A stretch of DNA of 45,642 bases from a virus. Below, one piece after another: positions 12,241 to 40,636 of the stretch (the stretch's first letter is position 1; every line of letters starts with the position of its first letter). The stretch lies in the IMG/VR virus record IMGVR_UViG_3300045391_001310, positions 1-45,642 of that record; one strand, written 5' to 3'. Made by a program: the position numbers and the translations under genes. Below the pieces are notes generated by a model that made no database searches, was not told the origin of the DNA, and saw only the letters and a list, made by a program, of their open reading frames with translations.

Positions 12241-12254
12241 CAACATGGGAGGGT

Positions 12255-16060: not shown

Positions 16061-16063
16061 TGG

Positions 16064-16493: not shown

Positions 16494-16644
16494 GCCAAAT
16501 ATATCCTATGAGTTAAGTTTTAAATATTCCCGTCACGGATTATCCTTTCACTATGTCTTTGACCACCCTGTACACGGGTGCATAGGAATAGACGAGAGGC
16601 GGATTATTTATAAACTATACATATTTTATTATTCAAATATAGTT

Positions 16645-17269: not shown

Positions 17270-17280
17270 TTGGGCGTTCC

Positions 17281-17379
17281 TCACGTTCCAAATATTAATA
17301 TTTTTAATGTTAGCCAAATAAATAATCCAAATAAACAACATAAATAACCTTGAACGAAACCCTTACAATATTCACTCAT
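17281..17379 (-). CDS. Tiny hydrophobic peptide (32 aa)
   Basis: Sequence MSEYCKGFVQGYLCCLFGLFIWLTLKILIFGT, preceded by a very strong Shine-Dalgarno, GGAGGGAGGAGAGGGA. Confidence 0.4.
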   Translation of the reverse strand: MSEYCKGFVQGYLCCLFGLFIWLTLKILIFGT

Positions 17380-17482
17380 TCCCTCTCCTCCCTACCTATT
17401 AGACCCAAACTTTAGCCACTTCGCCTGTTTAGTCATTAGAAACCCATTAATTTAACAATTAAATATCCTATAATTATGCCTA

Positions 17483-17827
17483 TTAGACCACCAAATAATC
17501 CACTTCTCCAGCCCATAAACCAGCATAAACTACTCTTGTATTTTGGCACTGCTCTTTTCTTGTAGCCCAACGACAATTTTCTTTGGAATAATTACCTTCG
17601 TTATCAATACGTTCCAATGTTGTCTGAGGATTGTGTTTTTTGTGTTCTAAATAACTTTCGTGCATATCCTGTTTAAATTCATTAAAATTAGACCACAAAC
17701 ATTTAATACCTCTTCCGCCGTAATTATGAAATGATTTGCTTTTAGGATTATTGCATCTTTGAAGAATTCCTCTCCATAAGATATAAAACTTAGTCTTGTT
17801 CATTCCATGTTTTAAATATTTTTTCAT
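17483..17827 (-). CDS. Homing-endonuclease-associated DNA-binding protein (the YxxWxxMxxRC...YGGRGI...RIDNxGNYxxxNCRWAT family)
   Basis: The motifs are [38 protein letters not shown]...[23 protein letters not shown]. This is a pattern common in phage HNH/AP2-like genes. Confidence 0.65.
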
Positions 17828-18108
17828 TACATATCCTCTATTGCTTTAATGCAATCACTCTTTTTGACGTAGCCAAGTTTTTCAGCCAATTTAACAGAAT
17901 CTTTCCACGTTGACTGGTCTATCCATCCCTCTTCTTTGTAATGCTCTTCGGCTATCTTGGCTAAGTCATCCCAATTCTGAATTTCTAATGTATAGTTAGA
18001 ACCGTTAAAACATTGTGTTTTAGTATAATCCAACTTAGCATTGATTTTTAATTTCTCTGCCAAACTCTTCTTCTTTACTTCTTGTCCGCACTTTTCGCAG
18101 TTAGTCAT
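17827..18108 (-). CDS. Hypothetical protein (93 aa, N-terminal CxxC)
   Basis: ATG with a GGAGA Shine-Dalgarno, and a TAATG overlap downstream. Confidence 0.55.
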
Positions 18109-18109
18109 A

Positions 18110-18181
18110 TTATCTCCAAATAAAATAAATGATTGTTAAAATAACTGCTGTTAAGAATAATCTTGTAAATAAAAAATCCAT
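18110..18181 (-). CDS. Tiny hydrophobic peptide (23 aa)
   Basis: Sequence MDFLFTRLFLTAVILTIIYFIWR, preceded by AAAAGGAAATGAT. This is part of repeat copy B. Confidence 0.3.
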   Translation of the reverse strand: MDFLFTRLFLTAVILTIIYFIWR

Positions 18182-18222
18182 ATCATTTCCTTTTTAATTT
18201 AGGCTAGTGGCAGTTGGTCTGC
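18179..18222 (-). repeat. Copy B of the repeated hairpin/Shine-Dalgarno cassette
   Basis: See 16154-16200. Confidence 0.6.
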
Positions 18223-18337
18223 GAGTTTTACTGGTTATTAAGTTGGCATTAGTTAGGCTTATTCGAAGCTCAGCGTTCCCATCCGCACAACACCATCATA
18301 GTTTACTCAGGCTTCCAAGCCACACTAGCCTTTATAT

Positions 18338-18619
18338 CTACCTCATTAAACAACCTTCTTTATCTAATCTGTTTTCACAAATATAATTAGACAATCTATC
18401 ATTGGTTTTATAATTTTCATTTTTTAATAAGTTAATCTCTTCCCACAATTTATGGATACTTTGATCTTGCATTTTCATTTTCTCTTTAGCAAAAGAAGCA
18501 AAAGATTCCGAACCATTGTTATAACTAATAGCCAATCCCATAAATACTATTATAAAAATAACAACCATTACTCCATAAACATTGTCTTTATTTTTAAAAA
18601 ATGACCAAATTTTAATCAT
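18338..18619 (-). CDS. Single-TM membrane protein (93 aa)
   Basis: The TM segment is VYGVMVVIFIIVFMGLAISY, followed by a coiled-coil tail. Confidence 0.55.
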   Translation of the reverse strand: MIKIWSFFKNKDNVYGVMVVIFIIVFMGLAISYNNGSESFASFAKEKMKMQDQSIHKLWEEINLLKNENYKTNDRLSNYICENRLDKEGCLMR

Positions 18620-18747
18620 CTATTATAACTCCATGTTACTGGTTGATAATATATAAACATAGATTTCATCGTACTCTTCCATGGACTTTTACTTTTATTT
18701 GGGTCAGTTCTTTTTCTTGGTTTTCTAACTTTTATTGGTCTGCTCAT
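18616..18747 (-). CDS. Small basic protein (43 aa)
   Basis: Sequence MSRPIKVRKPRKRTDPNKSKSPWK... It has an ATGA overlap with the next gene. Confidence 0.35.
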   Translation of the reverse strand: MSRPIKVRKPRKRTDPNKSKSPWKSTMKSMFIYYQPVTWSYNR

Positions 18748-19171
18748 ATTCCTTTAATTTATTTTCTAGATATGCCTTAACTGCGAATAAATCTGTTTTT
18801 CCTCTAAAAGATTTTAATAATTTTAGTCTTTCAAATACATCATATCCTCTAATTGCCTTTACCTTATCTTCGTAACTATCTTTTCTTCCTTGATTATGAA
18901 ATCCGAAAAAGTGTTCTCCTGCAGTTATACATATTCCGTTTTCTAAAGAATATCTTAAAGAATAATTAGGCTTCCCAGATAAATGATGGGCGTGTAGATT
19001 TTCTGTTTTACCAGATAATTCACTTTTATACCCTGCCTTTGCTTTTATACATTTTGCCCAAAGCTTGTCTAACTCTTTTAAGGTTGGCTTTCGTGTCTGC
19101 GTAAATAATCTTAATTTTAACTTGTTTATTATTTTCCTTTTGATAATTAACTCCTCTCCAAATAGCCCTTC
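18725..19171 (-). pseudogene. NinG-like reading frame (148 codons) with no ATG/GTG/TTG; a frameshifted continuation of 19026..19310 or a recoded gene
   Basis: Hand translation gives ...RKPTLKELDKLWAKCIKAKAGYKSELSGKTENLHAHHLSGKPNYSLRYSLENGICITAGEHFFGFHNQG... The layout resembles lambda NinG as I recall it (..IRxRD...CxxCG...H......LRF...N....C..C..H). This frame is +1 relative to the upstream 94-aa ORF. Confidence 0.45.
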
Positions 19172-19310
19172 TTATCTTCATTAAAGATAATTTCATTTGA
19201 ACAAAATCTTCTATTGGCACTAAACAATGAGTTGCATAATAAACTCTGGCTTTAATTTTTATAGCTTTCCTAATTTCTTTTTTAATATTAGCCATTCTAC
19301 GTTTATTCAT
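19026..19310 (-). CDS. K/R-rich 94-aa ORF; probably the N-terminal portion of the NinG-like gene
   Basis: ATG-initiated, with an 8-nt overlap with the upstream gene. Its last ~48 codons overlap the start-less NinG-like frame. Confidence 0.45.
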   Translation of the reverse strand: MNKRRMANIKKEIRKAIKIKARVYYATHCLVPIEDFVQMKLSLMKIRRAIWRGVNYQKENNKQVKIKIIYADTKANLKRVRQALGKMYKSKGRV

Positions 19311-19713
19311 AAACTACCTCGTTCGGATTTGGTATATAACATCCTAAATCTATACTTGCAAATTCTCTGATTTGTCTTAGGTATTCTTCCATTTTATTTG
19401 TCTTTAAATCTGTCGTAGAACATACTATTTTATAAGTTAATCCTCTAACAACTAGCCATTTACTTAGAAACTTAGACTTCATTAATTCATGCATATCTTC
19501 TACAGAATACCCTGTTTCTTCTGATAATAATTTTAAAACACATCCCCAATAATATTTGTTTTGGTTGTTGCTTCTTATTTCTTTCTCTGTGGCACTTTTA
19601 ATGGTTAAAAAGTATTCCCCATCTTTTAATGTATTACAATAATCCATTAACTTATCTAAGTCGTAACTTCCGAATTTATGATTTTGTAGAGTTATTCTGA
19701 ATTTAGGTATCAT
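19303..19713 (-). CDS. NinB/Orf-like recombination mediator (putative)
   Basis: The motif ..RSNNQNKYYWGCVLKLLSEETGYSVEDMHELMK.. resembles the R-S-x-x-Q-N signature of NinB. Its context next to the NinG-like and recombination genes also fits. Confidence 0.4.
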   Translation of the reverse strand: MIPKFRITLQNHKFGSYDLDKLMDYCNTLKDGEYFLTIKSATEKEIRSNNQNKYYWGCVLKLLSEETGYSVEDMHELMKSKFLSKWLVVRGLTYKIVCSTTDLKTNKMEEYLRQIREFASIDLGCYIPNPNEVVYE

Positions 19714-19855
19714 TTTTAATATAGCTTTTTATACAATTTGTAGCTGCCCAAATTTGTCCTATGATAAAATATAGATTTGAATAATCAATATTTCCAGCAA
19801 TAGCATAAACTATTTGAAAGAACATACATATTAAAGACATAATTAATGGTATCAT
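19703..19855 (-). CDS. Small membrane protein (50 aa)
   Basis: Sequence MIPLIMSLICMFFQIVYAIAGNIDYSNLYFIIGQIWAATNCIKSYIKNDT, with ATGA overlap upstream. Confidence 0.4.
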   Translation of the reverse strand: MIPLIMSLICMFFQIVYAIAGNIDYSNLYFIIGQIWAATNCIKSYIKNDT

Positions 19856-20484
19856 CGTCTTACCCTCAAATCATCTTCGCACCATATTTTAACTCCAGGG
19901 ATAGAAGCTTTATCTTTGAAAGTATTAACTGTTTTTCTAATTAATGACTCATCTACAATTAAGAATTCTTTTGGGATTAATTTCTCATCAATTATTGAAA
20001 ATTTCCACACTTTAACCGTAGAAACTCCTTCTTGTTTTTCAGCCTTAGTTTCGATTACTGGTGTAATAACCATCTGTGATTGTTGTAACTTTTCTTCAGC
20101 TTTATCGAAATTTCCATTTTCTATAGCTTTTTGTGCTTGTTTTTCTAACTTTTCTCTTTCTTTCTGAGCCTTAGCCTCTATTTCGGCTTGTAGTTTTAAT
20201 CTTCTTTCGTTTTCTTCTTTAGTAAATTGTAAAATCTTACCTTCAATAATCACTTCGCAACGCTCAATAGGTTCTAAATGTTTCTTCTCCTCACTAATTA
20301 ATGCCTTCCAAGAAGAATGGGCTTTCTGTATATGTGGACGGAATGTTTCTTTAACATTATCTTTTAACCCTCTTAATCCACGCAATACAGCAGAAGCCTT
20401 AGCGTTATCTTCGTTATTTTTAATCGTTATCTCTGCTAAACTTTGAGCCTCTTTTATCGGTTGTTCTAATTCAGCTAATTGCAT
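19852..20484 (-). CDS. Coiled-coil protein, Gam / Gp157-like (putative host-nuclease inhibitor)
   Basis: The ATG at 20484 is preceded by AAAGGAGAG. It has a long E/K-rich helix and a pattern A..vL..L..LK..v.e.f.p....AH..wK. Confidence 0.35.
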   Translation of the reverse strand: MQLAELEQPIKEAQSLAEITIKNNEDNAKASAVLRGLRGLKDNVKETFRPHIQKAHSSWKALISEEKKHLEPIERCEVIIEGKILQFTKEENERRLKLQAEIEAKAQKEREKLEKQAQKAIENGNFDKAEEKLQQSQMVITPVIETKAEKQEGVSTVKVWKFSIIDEKLIPKEFLIVDESLIRKTVNTFKDKASIPGVKIWCEDDLRVRR

Positions 20485-20495
20485 ATTCTCTCCTT

Positions 20496-20672
20496 TTAAA
20501 TACAAAATACTTTGTTAAACATTTCAATTATCTCTAACTTTGCTTTAAAAATCTTTGGGTCTCCTTTTGGGTCTAAAGTTTCTATTGCTCTACCAACAGC
20601 TGTCAATCTATTCAAACTAGAAATAATATAACCGAGAACAAACCCAGTAATTAACGTAATTACCAAAATCAT
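20496..20672 (-). CDS. Small N-terminal-TM protein (58 aa)
   Basis: Sequence MILVITLITGFVLGYIISSLNRL..., with an ATGA overlap with the nuclease gene. Confidence 0.4.
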   Translation of the reverse strand: MILVITLITGFVLGYIISSLNRLTAVGRAIETLDPKGDPKIFKAKLEIIEMFNKVFCI

Positions 20673-21262
20673 ATTAATCCCTCGCTTTTCTTTAGGTTAT
20701 ATATACTTAACATAAATTTAAAATAATTTTCATATTTAACGTCTATCTTTTGGTCATATTCAAATACATTCTTGTTATAGTCAAATCCCTTTAAGTCTGG
20801 GATAGTAAGAATATATAATTTTCTTATTTTATTCCCATAATAAAAATCTGGTTTCCCACAAAACTTCCATAAATCTGAGAACAACTTTTCTTCCATTCCT
20901 AATCCACTATTTTTAGAAGTTTCCACTAGAACTTTATAACCAAATATTTGTAATTTATTAGATAGCTTAGGAGTTTTAAAACTTTTCAAATCGACTATGC
21001 AATTTTTTAAGTCTATTGATTCTTTAAAATCTAGCCAGTGTTGCCAAATTATGCTATGGTCTGAATTAAAATTATTTATATCTCCCAATTCTCCTAATCT
21101 AACTACCTCATGAACTACATTCCCAAAGTTTATCGCTGGTTGTAATATATGATCTGGAACCATAGAAAAATCACTAAATCCGAAATGTTCTATAATCTCG
21201 CTAACACCAGGATATGACTTTCCATTCACTTCGTATTTGTGTTTTTCGTTTAATGTTATCAT
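20669..21262 (-). CDS. PD-(D/E)XK nuclease (recombination exonuclease / Cas4-like fold)
   Basis: The motifs are H.Y..NG..YPGVSEII, GNVVHE, IVDLKS and QIFGY (D-x-K ... Q..Y). It lies directly downstream of the annealing-protein candidate. Confidence 0.6.
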   Translation of the reverse strand: MITLNEKHKYEVNGKSYPGVSEIIEHFGFSDFSMVPDHILQPAINFGNVVHEVVRLGELGDINNFNSDHSIIWQHWLDFKESIDLKNCIVDLKSFKTPKLSNKLQIFGYKVLVETSKNSGLGMEEKLFSDLWKFCGKPDFYYGNKIRKLYILTIPDLKGFDYNKNVFEYDQKIDVKYENYFKFMLSIYNLKKSEGLI

Positions 21263-22089
21263 TTGGTAATATTCTCTGATCTCATGGTTTCATAATCAGT
21301 TTTCCTGCATGAAAAGAAAGCTTCTACTGTTTCATAATCATCTGCATTTAAAGCTGTGTATTTCTTATTAGCTTTATACCCAAGACTTCTGACGTTTGCT
21401 CCGATGTCCACTTCAGTCCATCCGTTGCCTAATGCCATTTTTACTAAATCGTCCCAAACAGATTGACTTATTCTAGGAATTTCTTGGATAACTTCGGATG
21501 GCCTAACTACAGGCTCGACTTTCTTGTGTAAATCTTCACCAGGCTTAACGATCTCTGTTTGTTTTGGCGTTTCCCTTGGCATATCTAAAACAGGCTTAGA
21601 ACTTATCATATCAATGGTTTCTGCATATTTTATAGTTTCAATTTCAGTTTCATCTAACATACCAAGACCACATAGAGCTAAAACAGCCCTTCTTTTAGCT
21701 TTAGTAACTGCCTTCATCATTGCGTTTGCTAAAATATCTCCTTTTAGCCCAGATATTGTTACTGCTCCATCTTCATCAGTGTGCCTATCTTTCATTATGG
21801 CTCTTACTGTTACACAATAAACATCTTCAATCTTCTCTTTTTTGGTAACTTCTGTGCTTATATTATAAATTTTACATAGTTGTTGGGCGCATCCTTTGTC
21901 TGCATAAAGGACTTCTTTCCCATTTAATTTTAAAAGTTTAAAGGGTTGAGTGGTTGGGTCTAAACCGATTCTTTCACAAAGAGAATTATAATATTGAACT
22001 TTTTGATTCGGCGTTAACTTACTAAGATCTCCTTGTAACACTAATGATGAAATTATTTCTTCTGATAATGATGATAACTCTTTGTTCAT
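21259..22089 (-). CDS. Single-strand annealing protein candidate (Rad52/Redbeta/Erf-like)
   Basis: The ATG at 22089 is preceded by GGAGGA. The motifs are LTPNQKVQYYNSLCERIGLDPTTQPF...VLYADKG...ANAMMKAVTKAKRRAVLALCGLG. It is paired with the nuclease. Confidence 0.5.
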   Translation of the reverse strand: MNKELSSLSEEIISSLVLQGDLSKLTPNQKVQYYNSLCERIGLDPTTQPFKLLKLNGKEVLYADKGCAQQLCKIYNISTEVTKKEKIEDVYCVTVRAIMKDRHTDEDGAVTISGLKGDILANAMMKAVTKAKRRAVLALCGLGMLDETEIETIKYAETIDMISSKPVLDMPRETPKQTEIVKPGEDLHKKVEPVVRPSEVIQEIPRISQSVWDDLVKMALGNGWTEVDIGANVRSLGYKANKKYTALNADDYETVEAFFSCRKTDYETMRSENITK

Positions 22090-22586
22090 TTTTTCCTCCA
22101 ATTTCTTCCAGAACTTATATGAGATATTGTAGAAGCGCAAACATTGTAATCTTTGGCTATTTTAGAATGATTTTCTCTATTATTTAATCTTTCTCTTATT
22201 TCTTTTACTTGATTTTTTGTTAAAGAAGAATTAGGGTTTCTTTCTCCGTTTTTATTAATTTTCTTGGAAAAATTAATTAATTTTTTAATTCTCCCATCTT
22301 CAGTTAAATGGCATTTTCTACATAACCATTTCCAATCACTTATTTCTCTTTTATATTCTCCACTAATATTTGCTAGATCATAAGGTTCTTTTTTTAAACA
22401 ATTCACACACAGTTTTGATTTTAATATTCTTCTCCGCATATACTGGTGAAGCGTTGTATAATTTTTTGAATTTCTGAATTTTATAATACTGTTTCTATCA
22501 ACAACGTCTTGTCTTTTACGAATATTTGGAATGACAGGAATTATATTCGCTGGAGTTTTTATTTCGTTTAATTGTAGATCGTTCAT
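22086..22586 (-). CDS. HNH homing-type endonuclease with a C-terminal HTH
   Basis: The motifs are CVNCLKK....WKWLCRKCHLTEDGR, with a C-terminal SKIAKDYNVCASTISHISSGRNW. Confidence 0.75.
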   Translation of the reverse strand: MNDLQLNEIKTPANIIPVIPNIRKRQDVVDRNSIIKFRNSKNYTTLHQYMRRRILKSKLCVNCLKKEPYDLANISGEYKREISDWKWLCRKCHLTEDGRIKKLINFSKKINKNGERNPNSSLTKNQVKEIRERLNNRENHSKIAKDYNVCASTISHISSGRNWRKK

Positions 22587-22587
22587 A

Positions 22588-22680
22588 TTATCTCCTTATA
22601 TCTAAACCAACGGTTAAACTTATAATTACAATTATTGCCATCAACATTAAACAGAAATAAAACATAGATTTACTGTTCAT
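22588..22680 (-). CDS. Tiny hydrophobic peptide (30 aa)
   Basis: Sequence MNSKSMFYFCLMLMAIIVIISLTVGLDIRR. Its stop lies 1 nt before the HNH ATG. Confidence 0.3.
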   Translation of the reverse strand: MNSKSMFYFCLMLMAIIVIISLTVGLDIRR

Positions 22681-22870
22681 AAAAACCACCGTTTATGATT
22701 ATTCCTTCTGGCGTAAGCTGAGAGTTCTTTCTTTGTATTTCCATAAATTTATTTCTAGCTTCTATTTTCTGACTTATTTCTTTTAATTCTTGTTCTAGCT
22801 CTAGCCGTATTTTCTTAATAGCTATTGATTGCTCTAATAAATCTAAAACTTCTTGTGCTAATGGATTCAT
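22670..22870 (-). CDS. Small coiled-coil protein
   Basis: A 66-aa, E/K/L-rich protein. Confidence 0.5.
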   Translation of the reverse strand: MNPLAQEVLDLLEQSIAIKKIRLELEQELKEISQKIEARNKFMEIQRKNSQLTPEGIIINGGFYEQ

Positions 22871-22877
22871 AGGGTTC

Positions 22878-23117
22878 CTATTCTTTTATTATTAATCGAC
22901 TTCTTTTTACTTGAATTGATTGAACTGTTCTGCCCAATAACTCTGCTAGCTCCATATCTATTCCTTTAAAATTGTTTAAAATTAGTATTTCTTTGCCACT
23001 CCATGTTCTCTTACCAAAAGAGTATATTCTCGATTTTTTATAGTTCCTTTTTCTTTCCCTATTCCTTCTTCTTAACATCTTTTCTCTATTTTTATATATT
23101 TTAACGTAACTTGGCAT
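22878..23117 (-). CDS. Basic protein with a Myb/SANT-like HTH
   Basis: The motif is RTWSGKEILILNNFKGIDMELAELLGRTVQSIQVKRSRL. Confidence 0.45.
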   Translation of the reverse strand: MPSYVKIYKNREKMLRRRNRERKRNYKKSRIYSFGKRTWSGKEILILNNFKGIDMELAELLGRTVQSIQVKRSRLIIKE

Positions 23118-23374
23118 TATAAACCCCCACCCTGATCTGATGTTTTATCATCAGAGAGCCGACCAAAGCGCAGGGTAGGGATAATTAAATGGTTAATATC
23201 ACAATTTACGCAACGTCCTGTTTCGTCTTGATCGCATTTTGGTATAGAGTTTCCACAGTCTATACAAGTAACTACATTTTGTTGTTCTCTTAATAATGAA
23301 TCTGGGAAGAAATATTTGTTTTCGTTTTGGTAATAAACTTGTTGCGATTCTAAGCGTGATTTTGGGAATGTCAT
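23117..23374 (-). CDS. Zinc-binding small protein
   Basis: The motif is CIDCGNSIPKCDQDETGRCVNCD, with an AAGGAGA Shine-Dalgarno. Confidence 0.5.
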   Translation of the reverse strand: MTFPKSRLESQQVYYQNENKYFFPDSLLREQQNVVTCIDCGNSIPKCDQDETGRCVNCDINHLIIPTLRFGRLSDDKTSDQGGGL

Positions 23375-23396
23375 TGGTCGGTCTCCTTTTTTGTTG

Positions 23397-23540
23397 TTAT
23401 TTTTTTGGGTTAATTATTTTACTTTCAAAAAAATCAATTAATACCGAAAGCTGTCCTTGTATTGTTCTCTTTTGTTGTTTACAAATCTTCGTTATTCTTT
23501 CATAATCTTCGTCGGAAATTCTTATCGTTTTGCTACTCAT
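23397..23540 (-). CDS. Ribbon-helix-helix (CopG/Arc-like) regulator (47 aa), not in the ORF track
   Basis: Hand translation gives MSSKTIRISDEDYERITKICKQQKRTIQGQLSVLIDFFESKIINPKK, which has a beta-strand then two-helix pattern. Confidence 0.55.
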   Translation of the reverse strand: MSSKTIRISDEDYERITKICKQQKRTIQGQLSVLIDFFESKIINPKK

Positions 23541-23577
23541 GAGTTATCCTTTCTTTGATTTCTAAAGGATTGTAACA

Positions 23578-24522
23578 TTAATTTGCTTTTGTGTCAAGTT
23601 TATTATTTTCATATTCCATTATCCATTTCCCGATAACATACGTTGAGCAAGGTGTTTGGCCGTTTCCGAGCATTTTAAGTCTGTGTATCCTATGGGTAAT
23701 CCCATTAGCCACTCGACCCACTCTGGATTCAACTGACCACCAATTTTTAAAGGGATTGATTTCCCATCCACACATTCTTTCAAGCCTTGAGTCTGTGGTG
23801 TCGGCCATAATCCTGCTTCCACCATTGCTACTTGATTGTTTATATGTAGAGGTAGCCCCTTCTTGTATCTCCTCTGAATATTTTTCACTTTCATTGCTCC
23901 TCTTGTGCAACTCGCATCTGGTGTTCTCCATAGGTGCATATTGCTCACTTGGTCTCTTAAATTCGCTGGTTTGCTTCTTCCTTTCCGAGAGACTTCCGCT
24001 TCTTTCTTCAATGCTTTCTCGCTTTTTGGTGGCAAGCTGTCCATCGTGTTTGGAGTAGCAAACAATCCAAAGGCGCTCTCTTTTGTGCCACGCTCCGAGT
24101 GAGTGAGATGAAAATACAATCGGCCAGCAGATGTAACCTTCACCCTCCAAATCAAATAATACAGTGTCGAGATAAATAGGGATGATACCAGGAACATTTT
24201 CGCAAATGACCCATCTCGGTTTAACATCTTTAATGATTCTAAACATCTCTGGCCAGAGGTTACGGTCATCGTCTTTTCCATTTTGCTTTCCTGCAACGGA
24301 AAAAGGCTGGCATGGAAATCCACCTGTGATGATGTCAACTTTTTTAAGCTCTTTGCCATTTAATTCCTTTATGTTTCTATATTTATTTGAATCGGGATAA
24401 CGTAACTCTAAAATCTTCTGACAATATTCATCAATCTCACATTGCCAAGAAATTTCCATACCAGCCATAAGAAAACCAAAATCTCCTAATCCACCACCAG
24501 AAAATAAACTTCCTATATTCAT
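23578..24522 (-). CDS. dcm: DNA (cytosine-5)-methyltransferase (frame A, 314 aa)
   Basis: The motifs are: I FSGGGLGDFG, IV GGFPCQPFS, VI ENVPG, VIII HKRERLWIV, and the C-terminal WWSVESRVGRVANG..RLKMLGNGQTP. The ATG is at 24522; the track start at 24540 is a TTG. Confidence 0.9.
   Translation of the reverse strand: MNIGSLFSGGGLGDFGFLMAGMEISWQCEIDEYCQKILELRYPDSNKYRNIKELNGKELKKVDIITGGFPCQPFSVAGKQNGKDDDRNLWPEMFRIIKDVKPRWVICENVPGIIPIYLDTVLFDLEGEGYICWPIVFSSHSLGAWHKRERLWIVCYSKHDGQLATKKRESIEERSGSLSERKKQTSEFKRPSEQYAPMENTRCELHKRSNESEKYSEEIQEGATSTYKQSSSNGGSRIMADTTDSRLERMCGWEINPFKNWWSVESRVGRVANGITHRIHRLKMLGNGQTPCSTYVIGKWIMEYENNKLDTKAN
23619..24359 (-). CDS. Nested +1-frame ORF (frame B, 246 aa) that reads like an MTase target-recognition / motif-IX region
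   Basis: It has its own ATG, preceded by AAGGA. It contains LFATPNTMD, LWRTPDAS, LWPTPQTQGLKEC and LNPEWVEWLMGLPIGYTDL..SET, and ends RMLSGNG. It lies entirely inside frame A. Confidence 0.4.
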   Translation of the reverse strand: MAKSLKKLTSSQVDFHASLFPLQESKMEKTMTVTSGQRCLESLKMLNRDGSFAKMFLVSSLFISTLYYLIWRVKVTSAGRLYFHLTHSERGTKESAFGLFATPNTMDSLPPKSEKALKKEAEVSRKGRSKPANLRDQVSNMHLWRTPDASCTRGAMKVKNIQRRYKKGLPLHINNQVAMVEAGLWPTPQTQGLKECVDGKSIPLKIGGQLNPEWVEWLMGLPIGYTDLKCSETAKHLAQRMLSGNG

Positions 24523-24524
24523 TT

Positions 24525-24764
24525 TTAAATTAATCTCCAAACATCTTCCCTTGTTTCTCCATACCCACGGAATCTTTTTTCTTGATCAGTTAATCTTCTT
24601 ATCTTCCCTTCCTGTCCTAACTGTCTGCATATCCTATCTGCTGTATTACAGTAGATACTTGTACCAAAGGCAATAACCTCGCTTGTTCGTGCGAATTCTT
24701 TTTCTTTTAGCCAAACTTCTATTTGTTCTTTTTTAGATAGTTTGTTGGCGTAAAGTTCTAGCAT
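24525..24764 (-). CDS. Small winged-helix-like protein (79 aa)
   Basis: The ATG at 24764 is preceded by a perfect AAGGAGG. Confidence 0.5.
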   Translation of the reverse strand: MLELYANKLSKKEQIEVWLKEKEFARTSEVIAFGTSIYCNTADRICRQLGQEGKIRRLTDQEKRFRGYGETREDVWRLI

Positions 24765-25461
24765 TTTCTTCCTCCTTTTGTTTTTCCCATCCATTGATTG
24801 TTTCTAATGGATTTTCTATTCTTGGTGTTCCTTTTTTAGCTTGGTTGCTAGGTATTCCATTTTTATTAATCCAGCTTAAAATTGTATGATAGTGGCTTTT
24901 ATATTTAGTTCCTTTAGAGCCTATATAATCATTCAAGTTACAAACCATTTTATTAAAAACATCCACTCCCAATCTTTCACACAACATATCTCTCTCATCT
25001 GAAGTCAAGTATACAAAATCTAAGAATTTAAGCTTTAACACTCGCTTCTCTTTAATATTCTCTATCTCCTTCTCTTTCTCTATCTCTATTGGAGTATCGA
25101 TACTCTTACTATACAGTATAGATACGGTATCTATAGAGTATCCAATCTTATTTAAACATTTATTAATAGGTAAAACCATCTTTTCGGATATAACATCTCC
25201 ATATTGAAAGTCTATAAACTTTATTATAAACCACTTATCTAATACTTTAATTACCTTATTATTAAAAACATCTAAACACTCATCTTCTATGTATTTTTCG
25301 TTTAACAGCTTAGAAACAGTTTTTAAATTCGGATCAAATATTCCAGCTGTATCACATTTTGTTAATATATAAAACCAAAGAACCTTGTATTTAGTTGGTA
25401 AGTCTAAAAACCAGTCTTTATCCCAAACAGAACCATCTATGAATCTCTTAGCCAAGCTCAA
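24733..25461 (-). CDS. Replisome organiser / DnaD-like replication initiation protein
   Basis: The N-terminus F.DGSVWDKDWFLDLPTKYKVLWFYILTKCD.AGIF is a typical phage replisome-organiser start. The C-terminus is YKSHYHTILSWINKNG. Confidence 0.6.
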   Translation of the reverse strand: MSLAKRFIDGSVWDKDWFLDLPTKYKVLWFYILTKCDTAGIFDPNLKTVSKLLNEKYIEDECLDVFNNKVIKVLDKWFIIKFIDFQYGDVISEKMVLPINKCLNKIGYSIDTVSILYSKSIDTPIEIEKEKEIENIKEKRVLKLKFLDFVYLTSDERDMLCERLGVDVFNKMVCNLNDYIGSKGTKYKSHYHTILSWINKNGIPSNQAKKGTPRIENPLETINGWEKQKEEENARTLRQQTI

Positions 25462-25807
25462 CTCCTTTAAATTGTCTTTTAAGGTAATATTTACTATAAG
25501 TTAGACAATCTTCTTTATATTCATGTTTTCTTAGTTTTTGATAGATAATTAAATCATCGTTATCTTCTTTAATATTTTTAGCTAAACTATTCTTTTGGTT
25601 TTCTACTTTATTTTTATCATTATAAAAACTAGAATGTAGCTCTGGTTTAAAGTATTCATCTTCTAACTCAAAATAATCTAAAATGTTTAAACCTACTCTT
25701 AATTTATGATATTGAGGCAAATTAATTAATTCCACTAAATCTAAACGATTACCATAATAAGAATCGCTATTTGCAATATAAGGTCTGTTTTTAAAATAAG
25801 TTTTCAT
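25448..25807 (-). CDS. First leftward gene, hypothetical (119 aa)
   Basis: An ATG-initiated ORF directly downstream of the structured leader. Confidence 0.55.
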   Translation of the reverse strand: MKTYFKNRPYIANSDSYYGNRLDLVELINLPQYHKLRVGLNILDYFELEDEYFKPELHSSFYNDKNKVENQKNSLAKNIKEDNDDLIIYQKLRKHEYKEDCLTYSKYYLKRQFKGVELG

Positions 25808-28865: not shown

Positions 28866-29276
28866 ATGAAAATCATTCCACTGGGGGATCGAATTTTAGT
28901 TAAAAGACGTACCGTAGGGGAGAAGTTAGGGACAAGTGGCTTATTGGTCTCAGCTGATGTTACTAAGGATAGGCCAACAGATTTAGCTGATGTAGTTAAG
29001 ATACCGGATCATAGTTTTGGGGACGAACAGTTAATTAATAATGCAGCTGCGATTATTACATCATTAACTACAAAAGCATTTGAAGGTGATGCAGAAGCGT
29101 TAAGAGCGTTGATTGATTTTAATTTGTTTTTAAAGATTAAAAGTATTAAACCAGGTGATACTGTGATGATTAGCAAATACATTGGGACGGATTTTAATAC
29201 GCAAGATAGCCAAGAATTAATAACTTTAGTTCGTGGCGATGATATTATGTGCATTTTGAAAGAGGATAAGAAATGA
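28866..29276 (+). CDS. groES: GroES-like co-chaperonin (Cpn10) with a ~45-aa internal insertion
   Basis: IIPLGDRILVKRRTVGEKLGTSGLLV aligns with the GroES start IRPLHDRVIVKR.E.E.K.aGGI. The C-terminal IKPGDTVMISKY.G......QELITLVRGDDIMCIL aligns with VKVGD.V.f..y.G......e.l.m.e.DILA. Confidence 0.7.
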   Translation: MKIIPLGDRILVKRRTVGEKLGTSGLLVSADVTKDRPTDLADVVKIPDHSFGDEQLINNAAAIITSLTTKAFEGDAEALRALIDFNLFLKIKSIKPGDTVMISKYIGTDFNTQDSQELITLVRGDDIMCILKEDKK

Positions 29277-34796: not shown

Positions 34797-35699
34797 ATGT
34801 CTATTAATTCCAGCACAATAGTAGATGCTTTAGATGCAAACCTGAATGAAATGTTTCAGGATGGTCTAAAGAGCTGGGGCAATGAATTTGAGAAGATTTT
34901 TAACGTACTTACTTCAGATAAACAATCTGAAAAAGATAGTTATGAATCTGGTTTCGGTTCTATGCCTCAAAAGAATGAAGGTGTTTCAGCAACCTATGAT
35001 GTAATTTTGCCAGGTATTAAAAAGGTTTATACTCATGCAACATATGCATTAGGTTATGAAATTACCGAAGAAGCCGTTGAAGATAATCTTCGTACGCCAG
35101 AAACTTTTAACAAGTTACCTCAAGCACTTAATCGTGCTGGTCAGGAAACTGTTGAAGTTACGGCTGCGAATGTCTTTAATAATGGTTTTTCAACAACTGG
35201 CTTTGATGGTAAAGCCTTATTTGCCACAGATCACCCTAATCTTGGTGGTGGTACGCAATCAAATACACCTTCAACGCAAGCTGACTTATCTGTTACATCA
35301 TTAACAGCTGGGTTAACTGCTATTGAAGGTTTCACAGATGAGCGTGGTTTAAAAAGACCAACTAAAGCTGTTATGTTGGCAGTACCTGTAAACTCTTGGA
35401 ACATTGCAGAAGAGTTATTAAAGTCTGAATATAAGCCTTATACGGCTAATAACGAAGTCAATGCTATTCAAGCAAAAGACTTACGTTATTTCGTATGGCA
35501 TTATTTAACAGATACTGACGCATGGTTTTTACTTTCTGAGAAGAGCGAACATATGTTGAAGTTCTTCTGGAGAGTTAAACTAGGTGCTTTACGACGTGGA
35601 ACAGATTTTGATTCTACGAACTTAAAGCATTTAGCTCGTATGCGTTTCTCAGTAGGTTATAGTCATTGGATGGGTACTTATGGTTCTTCTGGAGCCTAA
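34797..35699 (+). CDS. Major capsid protein (HK97 fold; Mu gpT-like size and N-terminus)
   Basis: It has a GGAGGA Shine-Dalgarno and is 300 aa long. The N-terminus MSINSSTIVDALDANLNEMFQDGLK... resembles gpT-type capsid proteins. The position also fits. Confidence 0.75.
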   Translation: MSINSSTIVDALDANLNEMFQDGLKSWGNEFEKIFNVLTSDKQSEKDSYESGFGSMPQKNEGVSATYDVILPGIKKVYTHATYALGYEITEEAVEDNLRTPETFNKLPQALNRAGQETVEVTAANVFNNGFSTTGFDGKALFATDHPNLGGGTQSNTPSTQADLSVTSLTAGLTAIEGFTDERGLKRPTKAVMLAVPVNSWNIAEELLKSEYKPYTANNEVNAIQAKDLRYFVWHYLTDTDAWFLLSEKSEHMLKFFWRVKLGALRRGTDFDSTNLKHLARMRFSVGYSHWMGTYGSSGA

Positions 35700-36080: not shown

Positions 36081-36101
36081 GGGAGGCCTAATAAGCCTCC
36101 C
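36081..36101 (+). promoter_or_regulatory. GC-rich hairpin (GGGAGGC, 7-nt loop, GCCTCCC) without a T-tract
   Basis: It lies between the capsid block and the WaaL-like gene, so it may act as an attenuator or an RNA-stability element. Confidence 0.5.
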
Positions 36102-36109
36102 AACCCCTT

Positions 36110-37315
36110 ATGAAAATATTAAAAGAAAAAGATAAAACATTTTGGCTTGTTTTTGGAGCACTTATTACTGTTCCATTATCTTCTTGTTTAAAGATCGGCC
36201 CAGATGTTTGGTATTCTCAGGTTATATGGTTATTGGGTGTTCTCTGTGTTGGTATAGCATTAGAGCTTTGGAAATTTAATAAATATTTGTCAATATTTAA
36301 TATCGTTTTAATTTATTCTACTTTAGTTACTGCAAATCAAGGGTTAAGGTCTATATTTTATTTGTTTATAACTAGCATTGCCTTTCTTGCTTCTTATAAG
36401 ATAAGTTTGTTTAATAAAAAGCAAAGAGAATATTTGATTTATGCGATATTAGCAGTATTTTGTTTACAAGCGTTGTGGGTCATTTTACAGAAATTTAATT
36501 TAGACCCAATATTTAGTTATATAGATAATCCTGCATTAGACAATACCGTAGGGTTTTCTGGTAGCAGAAACCAAATAGGTTTATTTTTTGCTATTACATC
36601 TCCATTGGTTATTGCATTAGCGCCAATATTATTGCCTTTTACTATTATAGGATTATGGTTTTCTGCAACGACATCAGCTTTTGTAGCTTTTATCGTAGCT
36701 GGATTTGTTTATACTTCATTTTATTTAAAGCATTTAAGAATAGGTTTTGTTCTAATGACTATTTTAGCTACTATTATTTTCTTTTTAAAATATGAAAACT
36801 TTTCAATAGAATCTTATAAAGAAAGATTTGGATTAATTAAACATAGCGTTAATGAGATTATGACTGGAAAAGCTTTAATGAAACAGGACATGACTGAGCT
36901 AGATGGTAAGAAAATAACTAAGTTTACTGAGATTACGACTAATTTTATGCAAGGATATGGATTAGGAAATTTTATTAGAGTATCTCCATATACTCAATGG
37001 AAGTTTATGGATATTTATAAGGAAGGTGGTAATCCTCAGCATAGATATGAGCATATGCACAATGATTATTTTGAAATATTTTATGAGACAGGATTGGCTG
37101 GTTTTGTTTCTATGTTGTTTTTATTGTGGAACTTTTTCTTAGAGTTTATTAAGTCTAACAAAACTAAGTTAATGATTATTTCTTTTTGTTGTATTTTAGC
37201 TCAGATGGTTTCTGCACTAGGTATTTATACTGTTTATACCGCTGTTTCTGGGGTTTTGTTTATAGTTCTATATGGGATATTTAAGGGGGAAGAGAGGGAT
37301 TTATTATGTCATTAG
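36110..37315 (+). CDS. O-antigen ligase family (WaaL / PglL / Wzy_C-type) polytopic membrane protein
   Basis: It has about 10 TM segments and a large loop that ends in the family signature EHMHNDYFEIFYETGLAGF (H-x-H-N....E.G..G). No obvious Shine-Dalgarno is present. Confidence 0.7.
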   Translation: MKILKEKDKTFWLVFGALITVPLSSCLKIGPDVWYSQVIWLLGVLCVGIALELWKFNKYLSIFNIVLIYSTLVTANQGLRSIFYLFITSIAFLASYKISLFNKKQREYLIYAILAVFCLQALWVILQKFNLDPIFSYIDNPALDNTVGFSGSRNQIGLFFAITSPLVIALAPILLPFTIIGLWFSATTSAFVAFIVAGFVYTSFYLKHLRIGFVLMTILATIIFFLKYENFSIESYKERFGLIKHSVNEIMTGKALMKQDMTELDGKKITKFTEITTNFMQGYGLGNFIRVSPYTQWKFMDIYKEGGNPQHRYEHMHNDYFEIFYETGLAGFVSMLFLLWNFFLEFIKSNKTKLMIISFCCILAQMVSALGIYTVYTAVSGVLFIVLYGIFKGEERDLLCH

Positions 37316-37380: not shown

Positions 37381-38475
37381 ATGGCAACACATATTACTAA
37401 CGCAACCCAATTACAGAATATGAATCTTAATTTAACGGAAAATTATATTCTTGATAATGATATTGATTTAACTGGGGTTATTTGGACTCCTATAGGATCT
37501 GTTTCGCCATTCTTTTTTAGCGGTTCGCTTGATGGACAAGGATTTACAATTAGAAATTTAACAATAAATAATCCATCTGGGCTTGGAGGGTTATTTGATA
37601 CCCTTGGAGATGACTCCCCAGAAGTTTTTGCAACAATAAGTAATCTAAAATTAGAAAATTTTAACTTTACTGTTAACACCTTTTCAGGGGCATTAGCTGG
37701 AAGAACAATAAGAGCAACCTTAAATAATATATATGTTAATGATTTTGAAATTATACCATCTGATGATTCTCCAAGTTATTTAGGGGGATTAGTTGGTTAC
37801 ATGGCGGGTGGATCAACTAACCATACAACATTAAATGGTTATTATGCTGAGAATATAACTTTAGGTGGGGATGAATTTATAGGAGGAATTGCAGGGTACT
37901 CTCAGTATCTTGATTATCAAAAATGTTCTGTTAATAATTTATTAATTACAATTAGCGGAGATGATAGGTATGCAATAGCTGGATTAATCGGAGATTGCAA
38001 TTTTTCAACAGGGATAGATTGTTATGTTAACGGAGATATAAATGATGGTGGTGTATCTATTGGAGGATTGATAGGTAATTTAAGCAGTTCAGAGTTAAAA
38101 AATTCTTATTCAAACATTGCGATGACATCTTCAGCTACTGAAAAAGATTTGATAGGCGGTATTTGTGGGTTTATTGATACAGATAGTTTATTAAGAAATT
38201 GTTATTCGGTTGGGATTATTAGCATGACTGGTAATTTTATTGGAGGAGCTATTGGGCAAATAAATGGTACTCCGACCATTAACAATATTGCATGGTTTAC
38301 TGATTCTTTCACATATGCAATAGGTAAATACCCAACTGGTACAAATGCTATGTTACAAGCCTTGGGATATGGAACAGACGAACCAGATAACACACAATTT
38401 CAAAATGACGTACATCATGCGGTTTATGCACAGGGAACGGCTAATCAATGGGATTTTGAAAGGACGCAGAGTTAA
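37381..38475 (+). CDS. GLUG-repeat beta-helical protein (tail spike / adhesin-like), paralogue 1
   Basis: The N-terminus is I.NA.QLQNMNLNL.ENYILDNDIDLTG..W.PIG...F.G.LDGQGFTI.NL. It has repeated (I/L)GG(L/I)(V/I/A)G units. Confidence 0.6.
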   Translation: MATHITNATQLQNMNLNLTENYILDNDIDLTGVIWTPIGSVSPFFFSGSLDGQGFTIRNLTINNPSGLGGLFDTLGDDSPEVFATISNLKLENFNFTVNTFSGALAGRTIRATLNNIYVNDFEIIPSDDSPSYLGGLVGYMAGGSTNHTTLNGYYAENITLGGDEFIGGIAGYSQYLDYQKCSVNNLLITISGDDRYAIAGLIGDCNFSTGIDCYVNGDINDGGVSIGGLIGNLSSSELKNSYSNIAMTSSATEKDLIGGICGFIDTDSLLRNCYSVGIISMTGNFIGGAIGQINGTPTINNIAWFTDSFTYAIGKYPTGTNAMLQALGYGTDEPDNTQFQNDVHHAVYAQGTANQWDFERTQS

Positions 38476-39821
38476 TGGCTACCCATATAACTAATGCTAC
38501 TGAACTTCAAAATATGAATCTAAATATGAATGAAGATTATATATTAGATAATGACATTGATTTAACAGGGATTGATTGGAAACCTATTGGGTATGGAGAT
38601 CAACAATTTACTGATTTATCAACTGCTGGACAATTTACTGGTACTTTTGACGGGCAAGGATTTACTATATCTAATTTGTCTGTTTCAGCAACAAACTCAG
38701 CTCTTGGTGTTGTAGGTGGATTGTTTGGATTTCTTGGAAATGGTAGTTCTCGTCCATCAAAAGGCAACCCACCGATTAAAAACGCAACTGTTTCAAATTT
38801 AAATTTATCTAATGTTTCGTTAACAGGACATTATGCCTTGGGAGGATTAGCTGGTTTTATTATAGGGGCTGACATAACAAATGTTCATTTAGATGGTGTT
38901 GAAATTTCTTGGGATGGAATATCTACTGTTCATGCTTGCGGTGGTTTTGGTGGAGATTGTTACAATATATCAATAGATACAACGATAATTACAAATTGTA
39001 GTGTCGATGATGTCAGTATAACTGGAAAATTAAGCCAATATATAGGTGGATTCTTAGGAGATTGTTTTGTTTCTTCAGCGGTTACAGATTTTGTTGTACA
39101 CAAATGCTTTGCTACTAATGTAAGCATTATAGGAAATGCTGGTACAGCCGGATTCAATGGAGTCGGTGGGTTTGCAGGGTTATTAACAGGTACTATTTAT
39201 GATTGTTATGCCACAGGCACGATTGACGGTTCTGGAATACTTACTGTTTTTTATGATGTGGGCGGATTTGCTGGAGAAATAGATGCCACATTTAATAATT
39301 ATAATTGTTATTCTAATGTTGAAATTATATCAGTTGAAGTTACTCAGGATTATAACGGAATTGGTGGGTATATAGGTAAATTTTACGGTGGCCCTACAAA
39401 TTCTATAAGAAATGTTTATTCCGTTGGGACAATAACCGTCACATCTTTAGCTCAAGGTGTTGGTGGGTTAATTGGAATATATGACAATGGAGATTTATCA
39501 ACACCATCTTTAGCTTTAATAAATAATTGTGCTTGGTTAACAAGTATAGTGAATTGTGCTATTTCACAATTAGATAGATCAACTTATTCAGCATGGAACA
39601 GTGGAACAACTTATTCTATTGGTGATAAGGTTTTTAGTGGAAGTTATAACTGGATAAGTATTAAAAATTCAAATCTTAATAAATCTCCAGCTTTCCAGCC
39701 TTCTTGGTGGAGGAAGTTATACACAAGAGTTAACACTTTGACCGAACTTAGTTTTGGTACAGATGAAGCAGATATAAGCAATTTTTATACAACAGATCAC
39801 CCTGTCTATGCACAGGTCTAA
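38475..39821 (+). CDS. GLUG-repeat beta-helical protein, paralogue 2, with a C-terminal CBM5/12-like module
   Basis: It has the same N-terminus as 37381. The C-terminal YSAWNSGTTYSIGDKVFSGSYNWISIK....P....SWW matches the W..TtY..GD.V.y.g..Y pattern. Confidence 0.6.
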   Translation: MATHITNATELQNMNLNMNEDYILDNDIDLTGIDWKPIGYGDQQFTDLSTAGQFTGTFDGQGFTISNLSVSATNSALGVVGGLFGFLGNGSSRPSKGNPPIKNATVSNLNLSNVSLTGHYALGGLAGFIIGADITNVHLDGVEISWDGISTVHACGGFGGDCYNISIDTTIITNCSVDDVSITGKLSQYIGGFLGDCFVSSAVTDFVVHKCFATNVSIIGNAGTAGFNGVGGFAGLLTGTIYDCYATGTIDGSGILTVFYDVGGFAGEIDATFNNYNCYSNVEIISVEVTQDYNGIGGYIGKFYGGPTNSIRNVYSVGTITVTSLAQGVGGLIGIYDNGDLSTPSLALINNCAWLTSIVNCAISQLDRSTYSAWNSGTTYSIGDKVFSGSYNWISIKNSNLNKSPAFQPSWWRKLYTRVNTLTELSFGTDEADISNFYTTDHPVYAQV

Positions 39822-39823
39822 TT

Positions 39824-40636
39824 ATGGCAAACCCATGGGATTTTTCAACACCAGTATGGTTAACAGAATGTCACGACTTACCGACATTCGTTGGTTCAGA
39901 ATGTCCATGGAATACAAATTGCAACGATTATCCAGATTTTGTTGGATCGGCTTGTGGTGGCGGTTCAACATCATCTATAACTTTAGCCGAATTGGACAAT
40001 CCAGTCGAAGGATTGGTTACAGTATTTGCAACAGTCGTAGAAGTAACTTGTATTCAATATTACATAGATGGGATAGCAGTAGGTGGGCCATTTTATGATC
40101 CTTGGGATTTATTATTTGACACACATGAATATGAATCTGGAACGCATACAATATATGCTAAAAGTTGTGATGGTACGGTTACATCTAATACGATTAACGC
40201 TATTATCGTATCTACAGCAGTTTCTAGGCATACAGGTGATAAGCCACAGGATAAAGGACAGCAAAGAGAATGTATCGTTTGCGGATTTTGGTTTCCTGAG
40301 CGTGATTTTAGAATTCGTCAGAAAGATAAGCAATGGATTTGTAAGTGGGATTATGATGAAGTATCGGAGGATGATTCTCACGGTACAGTTGAGATTCATT
40401 TACTTAAAGGTCAGATGCGTAATTGCTCTATTTGTGATTTTTGGTTTGCTGAAAGAGATTATCGAATTCGTAAAGTTAGAAACAAATGGCTTTGTAAATG
40501 GTGTGAAGAATCTCAATATTATGATGATGACGAAGGTATCCCAGGAGACAATGTTGATTATTTACAACTCGAAGATGAAGATTCCTATTTGCTTGAAGAT
40601 GGAGGAAAGATAATCCTTGAAGATGACACTGAGTAA
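39824..40636 (+). CDS. Virion-module protein with an Ig-like domain, two duplicated CxxC..CKW zinc-ribbon-like units and an acidic tail
   Basis: The two units are RECIVCGFWFPERDFRIRQKDKQWICKW and RNCSICDFWFAERDYRIRKVRNKWLCKWC. The C-terminus is DYLQLEDEDSYLLEDGGKIILEDDTE. Confidence 0.55.
   Translation: MANPWDFSTPVWLTECHDLPTFVGSECPWNTNCNDYPDFVGSACGGGSTSSITLAELDNPVEGLVTVFATVVEVTCIQYYIDGIAVGGPFYDPWDLLFDTHEYESGTHTIYAKSCDGTVTSNTINAIIVSTAVSRHTGDKPQDKGQQRECIVCGFWFPERDFRIRQKDKQWICKWDYDEVSEDDSHGTVEIHLLKGQMRNCSICDFWFAERDYRIRKVRNKWLCKWCEESQYYDDDEGIPGDNVDYLQLEDEDSYLLEDGGKIILEDDTE

Follow-up and report, generated by a model that had tools for sequence, protein, structure and literature searches.

A Wzy_C-family gene in the late block of a podophage genome

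The DNA analyzed here, which we call the window, is the 45,642-nucleotide stretch formed by positions 1 to 45,642 of the IMG/VR virus record IMGVR_UViG_3300045391_001310. Between its major capsid gene and its fibre-like genes lies a gene for a 401-residue membrane protein, which we place by profile matches in the Wzy_C superfamily of glycan transferases, together with the O-antigen ligase WaaL and the O-oligosaccharyltransferase (O-OTase) PglL. An earlier inspection of the same DNA without database searches (the sequence-only reading) had drawn attention to this gene and had suggested that its product either glycosylates exported phage proteins or remodels host surface glycan.

Nucleotides 1-51 of the window are repeated at 45592-45642, indicating a circularly closed assembly of approximately 45,591 bp, with a GC content of 34%. 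The genome is that of a podophage, with genes for a terminase (starting at 26971), an SU10-type portal (29683), a major capsid protein and a tail nozzle; the adaptor gene crosses the assembly junction, and its C-terminal part appears as the open reading frame (ORF) 204..500. The late block occupies the plus strand from 26193 across the junction to about 14950, and a minus-strand block (15258..25807) carries genes for replication, nucleases and a C5 methylase. The Wzy_C gene is located 3' of the major capsid gene and 5' of fibre-like genes with a GLUG motif, the position that the sequence-only reading had given it. None of the ORFs scanned had an integrase or recombinase domain or was recognisable as an endolysin gene; the sole muralytic domain is an SLT domain at the C-terminus of a 697-residue virion-type protein (5837..7930), and no tRNA genes were found. 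The closest isolated phages, DSL-LC04, cyanophages and the pelagiphage HTVC023P, share merely 35-41% capsid identity with the window. The features discussed below are collected in Table 1.

Table 1. Positions of the Wzy_C gene, its conserved motifs and associated features in the window. Signal peptides are those called by the heuristic described in the text.
Feature	Position	Strand	Remarks
Wzy_C-superfamily (WaaL/PglL-like) membrane glycan transferase	36110..37315	+	ATG start, 401 residues; Pfam, profile and model
Periplasmic loop after TM5, residues 127-155	36488..36574	+	motifs Q127-x4-D132-P-x-F and V-G-F-S-G-S-x-N154-Q; alignment
R239 codon	36824..36826	+	sole invariant arginine (126/126 representatives); aligned with 7TPG R242 and 9RMK R280
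Catalytic His motif H-N-x9-G-x2-G, residues 311-331	37040..37102	+	H-R-Y-E-H315-M-H317-N318-D-Y-F-E322-...-G328-L-A-G331; end of large periplasmic loop
GC-rich hairpin, GGGAGGC-loop-GCCTCCC	36081..36101	+	between small secreted-protein gene and Wzy_C gene
Small protein, 117 residues	35715..36068	+	signal peptide MKKIVLVILALLSTVGIVYA, then Q; always directly between major capsid gene and Wzy_C gene
Major capsid protein	34797..35699	+	phrog_371 (PHROGs); anchor of synteny
Nozzle (tail hub), 534 residues	497..2101	+	Sec-type signal peptide MKKLLIIALLLFSSKAYA, then QE; Foldseek and heuristic
Tail-fibre-like protein	2101..3366	+	Gly_rich_2, phrog_863; signal peptide kept in orthologues
Late protein, 1106 residues	8214..11534	+	signal peptide MKKFILSIYFILISTLSFA, then QG; no family match
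Fibre-like late protein, 613 residues	40623..42464	+	signal peptide
Late protein, 173 residues	42461..42982	+	signal peptide
Late protein, 405 residues	42945..44162	+	signal peptide
Small protein, 125 residues	44338..44715	+	signal peptide; in 12 loci just 5' of the head-tail joining genes
NeuD/PglB/VioB-family sugar N-acetyltransferase	15258..15887	-	early/middle block; TIGR03570, 177.9 bits against a cut-off of 160.8

The protein belongs to the WaaL/PglL superfamily

The window protein matched Pfam Wzy_C (PF04932, 'O-antigen ligase') over residues 177-334 with E = 5.5e-7 and 29.9 bits, 1.8 bits short of the gathering score of 31.7. Because all 34 database homologues matched the same family (best E = 1.8e-16), we attribute this shortfall to divergence and not to chance. 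A profile of the family searched against solved structures matched WaaL of Cupriavidus metallidurans (7TPG, E = 1.1e-12), in which the string EHAHND is identical, and, over profile positions 59-355, the 610-residue 'oligosaccharyltransferase' 9RMK (E = 1.4e-9). The numbering of 9RMK (R298, P313, G316, G318, H349) agrees with the residues listed for Neisseria meningitidis PglL (Schulz et al. 2013, PMC3643930). The window protein had no family in PHROGs or NCBIfam. Foldseek returned only weak matches for its model in the Protein Data Bank (PDB), to the shape, elongation, division and sporulation (SEDS) proteins FtsW and RodA (E = 0.25-0.8) and not to WaaL, and returned none in BFVD; we do not consider this result informative for a membrane protein built wholly of helices, and the family call therefore rests on the profile-sequence matches. 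Those matches identify the protein as a member of the WaaL/PglL (Wzy_C, GT-C-like) superfamily with its histidine center intact. The sequence-only reading had assigned it to the same family from a signature string, EHMHNDYFEIFYETGLAGF, which is present at residues 314-332, and had proposed the hidden Markov model (HMM) search that gave the Wzy_C match.

An AlphaFold model computed from a 34-sequence alignment of database homologues (predicted local distance difference test score 91.7, predicted template modeling score 0.90) has 12 transmembrane (TM) helices, not the approximately ten estimated previously. The large loop expected ahead of the signature is present, as a 90-residue loop or domain between TM9 and TM10 (residues 229-318) with one helix, a beta-hairpin and short helices; the model has no C-terminal periplasmic domain of the kind found in PglL and PglS. 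The short loops contain 14 lysines and arginines on the predicted cytoplasmic side against four on the predicted periplasmic side, as the positive-inside rule demands, and we thus place both termini in the cytoplasm and the conserved loops in the periplasm.

We computed conservation over 112 ingroup and 14 outgroup representatives of 50%-identity clusters. Overall identity of these 126 proteins to the window protein is just 27-49%; Q127, D132, R239, G282, G284, H317, N318, G328 and G331 are invariant or nearly so in all of them, and H315 and E322 are invariant in the ingroup. H317, N318 and G328 are unchanged in all 112 ingroup representatives and in 13-14 of the 14 outgroup representatives, and fit, together with G331, the ligase-type motif H-[NSQ]-x9-G-x2-[GTY]. 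H317 is aligned with the catalytic histidine of 7TPG, with E-H-x-H-N-D in both proteins, and with H349 of 9RMK. The catalytic histidines are H338 in Escherichia coli WaaL and H349 in N. meningitidis PglL (PMC3643930; roles of residues are taken throughout from this paper and PMC12800693). A conserved catalytic histidine motif facing the periplasm, in keeping with the sequence-only reading, is thus borne out by the invariance of H317, the charge counts and the model.

Outside the histidine motif, the N-terminal half of the protein aligns better with the PglL-numbered 9RMK than with WaaL. Q127-x4-D132-P-x-F is aligned with IQFAGWEdtPLF of 9RMK, G-S-x-N154-Q with G-Q178-R-N180-N (GQRNN), and G282-x-G284 with G316-x-G318. 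At the PglL_B residues, N154 therefore coincides with N180, but the position of Q178 is occupied by serine.

Wzy_C is a core late gene of an SU10-like family

To place the gene among relatives, we drew related loci from ENA, JGI, NCBI, Logan and IMG/VR. In 17 of them (L001-L017) the genes follow one fixed order: the major capsid gene comes first, then those for the small signal-peptide protein and Wzy_C, an optional variable insert, the gene for the 125-residue signal-peptide protein, two small genes, and the adaptor, nozzle and fibre-like genes. Across these loci capsid identity is 66-83%, compared with 27-43% for Wzy_C. Two further loci, L042 and L043, were selected via the nozzle independently of Wzy_C and carry Wzy_C in the same slot. 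An HMM search of 1.84 billion representatives recovered approximately 112 full-length 50%-identity clusters at 250-544 bits, followed by sequences at no more than 136 bits. The two members of this next tier, the outgroup, that we examined belong to other phage lineages, on contigs with a GC content of 47-50%, and in both the Wzy_C gene lies directly 3' of an adaptor-like gene and 5' of a nozzle-like gene. A tblastn search with the window protein and the two outgroup proteins found no match in 50,697 phage records. We conclude that Wzy_C is a core late gene, and not a moron, of a large uncultivated family of SU10-like podophages.

A scan of 185,579 species genomes yielded a single full-length relative, which is 37% identical to the window protein and is encoded on the 793-kb contig JBGAJA010000002.1 of a metagenome-assembled genome of Omnitrophota. 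Here a 410-residue Wzy_C protein and a 201-residue signal-peptide protein are encoded together (L020 9323..11233) between gmk and rpoZ, in housekeeping surroundings; type IV pilin-like genes lie 5 kb upstream of this two-gene insert. We considered whether the 201-residue protein is a homologue of the phage 117-residue protein and rejected this, finding no homology. In a neighbor-joining tree the Omnitrophota copy is nested nine nodes deep in the phage clade, and a search seeded with it found relatives just on phage-sized or very short contigs, so the gene was probably transferred from phage to cell. We likewise rejected a cellular source for the gene, given that its single chromosomal copy nests within the phage clade. 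Omnitrophota is the sole lead to a host, and a weak one.

Signal peptides accompany the enzyme

The sequence-only reading had connected the enzyme with late proteins carrying signal peptides. We called signal peptides with a heuristic of our own, which requires a charged n-region followed by a hydrophobic h-region without charges, a cleavage site with small residues at -3 and -1, and a mature protein whose start is not hydrophobic. Ten of the 50 window genes were positive, nine of them in the late block, as were 73 of the 273 ORFs in the family loci; among relatives without Wzy_C, the counts were 1/58 in DSL-LC04, 4/45 in HTVC023P and none in the tail region of the uncultured podovirus ctKR88. 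Nine of the ten signal peptides listed by the sequence-only reading passed the heuristic, and the one at 11947 failed because it has no charged n-region. Two of the ten listed genes, 11543 and 11947, look like members of an ordinary lysis cassette and not like virion genes. Together with the gene for a small TM protein at 12255 they have the look of a spanin/holin-type cassette (11543..12524).

One of the signal-peptide proteins is the nozzle. Foldseek matched it to the Pa223 tail (E = 6.8e-21) and then to VP1, P22 gp10, SU10 and T7 gp12. A signal peptide was called in 117 of 120 nozzle homologues, 67 of which have Gln at +1. When the window nozzle was compared by tblastn with ctKR88, the nearest relative without Wzy_C, homology began at query residue 20, the predicted mature end; the ctKR88 nozzle (29% identical) and its neighbors have no signal peptide.

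The product of the gene following the major capsid gene behaves similarly, with a signal peptide in each of the three Wzy_C-bearing lineages and none in DSL-LC04, where it is annotated as a 'cement protein', or in HTVC023P gp41. In the window this is the 117-residue protein, which matched nothing in PDB, Pfam or PHROGs and was not detectably homologous to either the DSL-LC04 'cement' protein or gp41. Across the family, then, signal peptides are kept as a feature while sequences drift. Wzy_C and signal-peptide proteins of the virion module co-occur: both are conserved in the family, and they are found together in two further lineages, giving comparative support to the link proposed from sequence.

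A possible role in glycosylation of exported phage proteins

Based on these observations, we hypothesized that the window gene encodes a phage O-oligosaccharyltransferase that glycosylates virion-associated proteins. The protein is a polytopic inner-membrane enzyme with its conserved loops and histidine motif on the periplasmic side, and its gene is transcribed with the structural genes, just behind the conserved hairpin. Judging from its superfamily, it would take a host glycan linked to undecaprenyl pyrophosphate (Und-PP) at the outer face of the inner membrane and pass it en bloc to an acceptor hydroxyl. The comparative context suggests that the acceptors would be phage proteins exported by Sec-type signal peptides. 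For PglL homologues it is a rule that the O-OTase gene adjoins the gene of its acceptor, as with pglL/pilO beside pilin genes (PMC3643930). The first candidate for an acceptor, or else for a partner protein, is therefore the 117-residue protein, encoded directly upstream as pilins are beside pglL/pilO; the fibre-like proteins and the nozzle would come next. We give a probability of about 45% to this reading, in which lipid-linked glycan is transferred en bloc on the periplasmic side and the likeliest recipients are phage proteins that are exported. A more elaborate version, in which virion morphogenesis runs in part via the periplasm, seems doubtful to us: the Sec-exported nozzle, fibre-like proteins and small head-associated protein would be glycosylated en bloc and would later, for example after holin lesions, join the DNA-filled heads of the cytoplasm to yield glycan-coated virions.

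Several observations weigh against glycosylation of exported phage proteins. The top solved-structure match is WaaL and not an oligosaccharyltransferase, and WaaL and PglL are indistinguishable by sequence (PMC3643930), so that on sequence the subclass of the window protein (WaaL or PglL type) is not assignable, and nor is its acceptor, protein or lipopolysaccharide (LPS). PglL_A (PF15864) matched neither the window protein nor any of the 34 homologues; PilO also has no PglL_A or PglL_B motifs (PMC3643930), so this absence is compatible with oligosaccharyltransferase activity. The arginines regarded as essential in E. coli WaaL are R215 and R288, corresponding to R224 and R298 in PglL (PMC3643930). 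In the phage profile a threonine, within an S-T-T stretch, is aligned with the first of these (R191 of 7TPG, R224 of 9RMK), and the equivalents of the second (R265 of 7TPG, R298 of 9RMK) land in a variable hairpin and are not conserved by alignment.

The exported proteins raise difficulties of their own. Their signal peptides were called by our heuristic and not by SignalP, and the co-occurrence with Wzy_C comes from a sample of three positive lineages and three negative relatives. HTVC023P, a phage without Wzy_C, has convincing signal-peptide N-termini on gp45 and gp46, encoded downstream of the capsid gene (L046 23481..25556). Ser, Thr and Asn are extremely abundant in the mature part of gp45. 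In the window, the flexible N-terminal linker of the 117-residue protein is not significantly enriched in Ser and Thr (0.22 versus 0.19). Finally, an exported nozzle is hard to square with head-tail joining in the cytoplasm, and the signal peptides may for this reason mean something else.

The enzyme might instead act as an LPS ligase that remodels the host surface late in infection, transferring lipid-linked glycan onto lipid A-core or another envelope lipid and thereby sparing progeny from loss on debris and infected neighbors, or excluding superinfecting phages. The WaaL match to 7TPG (E = 1.1e-12) points this way, as do the WaaL-like size, the 12 TM helices and the lack of a PglL/PglS-type C-terminal domain; moreover, every Wzy_C gene so far known from phages modifies O-antigen (PMC9658991, PMC4815439). 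Those conversion genes, however, are morons of temperate phages that lie beside an integrase gene and are expressed in lysogeny, whereas the window gene is a syntenic core gene of a head-tail module in a genome with no detectable integrase, and its sister-clade counterparts lie between adaptor and nozzle genes. A ligase would also leave the co-occurring signal peptides on virion proteins unexplained, and the arginine equivalent to R215 is missing. We consider an LPS ligase somewhat unlikely, yet a serious competitor to protein glycosylation. A further alternative is a Wzy-type polymerase that would join O-antigen or capsule repeats with a new linkage, as D3 Wzy-beta does. Pfam Wzy_C includes polymerases and there is phage precedent (PMC4815439, PMC9658991), but the invariant H-N-x9-G-x2-G and the identity with WaaL in EH-x-HND indicate ligase or oligosaccharyltransferase chemistry. 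The 50,697 phage records in which tblastn found no similarity are expected to include known seroconverting phages, and the gene sits in a structural module with neither an integrase nor an identified Iap-like partner; a polymerase is thus decidedly improbable.

Another view is that the protein serves lysis, using or hydrolyzing Und-PP-linked precursors (lipid II or O-units) so as to block wall synthesis or free undecaprenyl phosphate, or that it is a membrane platform or chaperone for exported proteins without any transfer. The genome has no recognisable endolysin, its only muralytic domain being the SLT domain mentioned above, and the best of the weak Foldseek matches, FtsW and RodA, are lipid II polymerases. 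In P2-like phages, too, lysis genes are located between the head and tail genes. Against this, the protein resembles ligases and oligosaccharyltransferases in sequence and not SEDS proteins, the Foldseek matches are not significant (E = 0.25), a candidate lysis cassette lies elsewhere, and single-protein blocks of wall synthesis are known only in very small phages. We therefore regard this explanation as unlikely. Least probable of all, and very unlikely, is a passenger gene acquired from a host and lacking any phage-specific role, for which the 37%-identical copy in an Omnitrophota chromosome could speak. That copy lies nine nodes deep in the phage clade, and cellular relatives of the subfamily were otherwise not found; the slot is fixed across the family, and the catalytic residues are invariant even though Wzy_C identity is 27-49% where the capsid retains 66-83%.

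Expression signals and other features

The hairpin and the absence of a Shine-Dalgarno sequence noted upstream of the Wzy_C gene by the sequence-only reading were both confirmed. All 16 loci compared have a GC-rich hairpin at this position, with differing sequences and, in nearly all, a G-rich 5' arm, and no Shine-Dalgarno sequence lies within 15 nucleotides of the ATG (cccaaccccttATG). Several relatives have a T-run after the hairpin that the window does not have, and a simple terminator scan did not call the window hairpin, which is without a T-run; a simple scan also found no significant excess of promoters or terminators near the Wzy_C gene. The hairpin probably acts as an attenuator or terminator at the end of the capsid unit, which is highly expressed, and we infer that read-through would give low expression of the membrane enzyme. 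Bacteroidota rarely use Shine-Dalgarno sequences, and most listed window genes have a Shine-Dalgarno-like sequence on their 5' side; this speaks against Bacteroidota as the host, even though Gln is frequent at +1 of the predicted cleavage sites.

The sequence-only reading had also paired the enzyme with a PglD/NeuD-type acetyltransferase. The identity of this second protein was upheld by TIGR03570. A module of acetyltransferase and ligase is not supported, because the two genes are on opposite strands and 20 kb apart, because an exact-peptide scan of viral contigs, a weak method, found no copy of the acetyltransferase on related phage contigs, and because no further sugar-pathway gene was found in the window.

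Directly downstream of the Wzy_C gene, 37381..38475 and 38475..39821 form a tandem pair of genes for paralogues that begin almost identically (MATHITNAT[QE]LQNMNLN); a GLUG motif is present in the second. The two proteins are probably exchangeable receptor-binding proteins, and in most relatives the slot after Wzy_C is short or filled otherwise. The next gene in the fibre region (39824..40636) encodes two copies of a Cys-rich motif (C-x2-C-x-FWF-x-ERD-[FY]-RIR ... W-x-CKW) that resemble duplicated zinc-ribbon units. Elsewhere, a GroES/Cpn10-like gene (28866..29276) lies between the terminase and portal genes, and one is likewise annotated in DSL-LC04 and HTVC023P; the C5 cytosine DNA methylase of the early block is encoded at 23578..24540.

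Comparison with known systems

With WaaL of C. metallidurans (7TPG/7TPJ) and E. coli, the phage enzyme has in common the Wzy_C family, 12 TM helices, a large periplasmic loop before TM10 and E-H-x-H-N-D, and the same chemistry on Und-PP-linked glycans would be expected from these matches. It departs from WaaL at both arginines, with threonine in place of R215 (R191 in C. metallidurans) and no conserved equivalent of R288 (R265), and in its location, WaaL genes being found in LPS core clusters and the phage gene in a head-tail structural operon. PglL, PilO (TfpO) and PglS belong to the same superfamily, and 9RMK could be aligned over most of the membrane domain, with matches in the Q-x4-[DE]-x2-P-x-F loop, at N154/N180, at G282/G284 with G316/G318, and at H317/H349. 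PglL has PglL_A and a large C-terminal periplasmic domain, and the phage enzyme has neither; it is phage-encoded in a late block. Its gene adjoins that of a small protein predicted to be exported, much as pglL and pilO adjoin pilin genes, but this neighbor is not a pilin.

Phage-borne Wzy_C proteins have been described in temperate phages, namely Wzy-beta of Pseudomonas aeruginosa D3, its counterpart in phi297, and VG_p25 of Variovorax VarioGold (PMC9658991, PMC4815439). These are likewise polytopic and of approximately 400 residues. Their genes are moron-like, beside integrase or lysis genes and oriented against the late genes, and are thought to be active in lysogeny, in contrast to the window gene, a core gene between the capsid and connector genes. 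The window gene shows none of the marks of a serotype-conversion module, which are a temperate phage, a moron position near the integrase gene and an inhibitor partner.

Glycosylated virions are themselves not without precedent. In mycobacteriophages, phage enzymes encoded beside structural genes are reported to give rise to O-glycosylated capsid or tail proteins (Freeman et al. 2023, cited in PMC11652166). There, soluble cytoplasmic glycosyltransferases act on virion proteins in the cytoplasm, whereas the reaction proposed here would be periplasmic, would proceed en bloc and would modify exported proteins. A block of genes annotated as glycosyltransferase and methyltransferase lies directly upstream of the tail genes in ctKR88 (L053 1..6883, MW202524.1) and may serve to glycosylate virions by a cytoplasmic route in phages of this broad group.

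The enzyme family and its phage-borne members are therefore known, and the novelty lies in the role of the gene in the genome and in its coupling with virion proteins that are exported; in the literature we found no WaaL/PglL-type enzyme described as a core gene of a structural module, nor Sec signal peptides described on nozzle or fibre proteins. A Wzy_C enzyme is fixed in the particle-building module of widespread uncultivated podophages, whose nozzle has over 200 homologues in public data, and it is accompanied by an unusually high load of signal peptides on proteins of the virion module, the nozzle included. If exported phage proteins are indeed glycosylated, this would be the first phage-encoded system for en bloc protein glycosylation of the oligosaccharyltransferase type. 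It would introduce an extracytoplasmic step into the assembly of a tailed phage, with consequences for how virions are built and evade recognition, and would offer new oligosaccharyltransferases for glycoengineering. Should the enzyme instead remodel LPS late in the lytic cycle, that too would be a new viral use of a WaaL-type enzyme.

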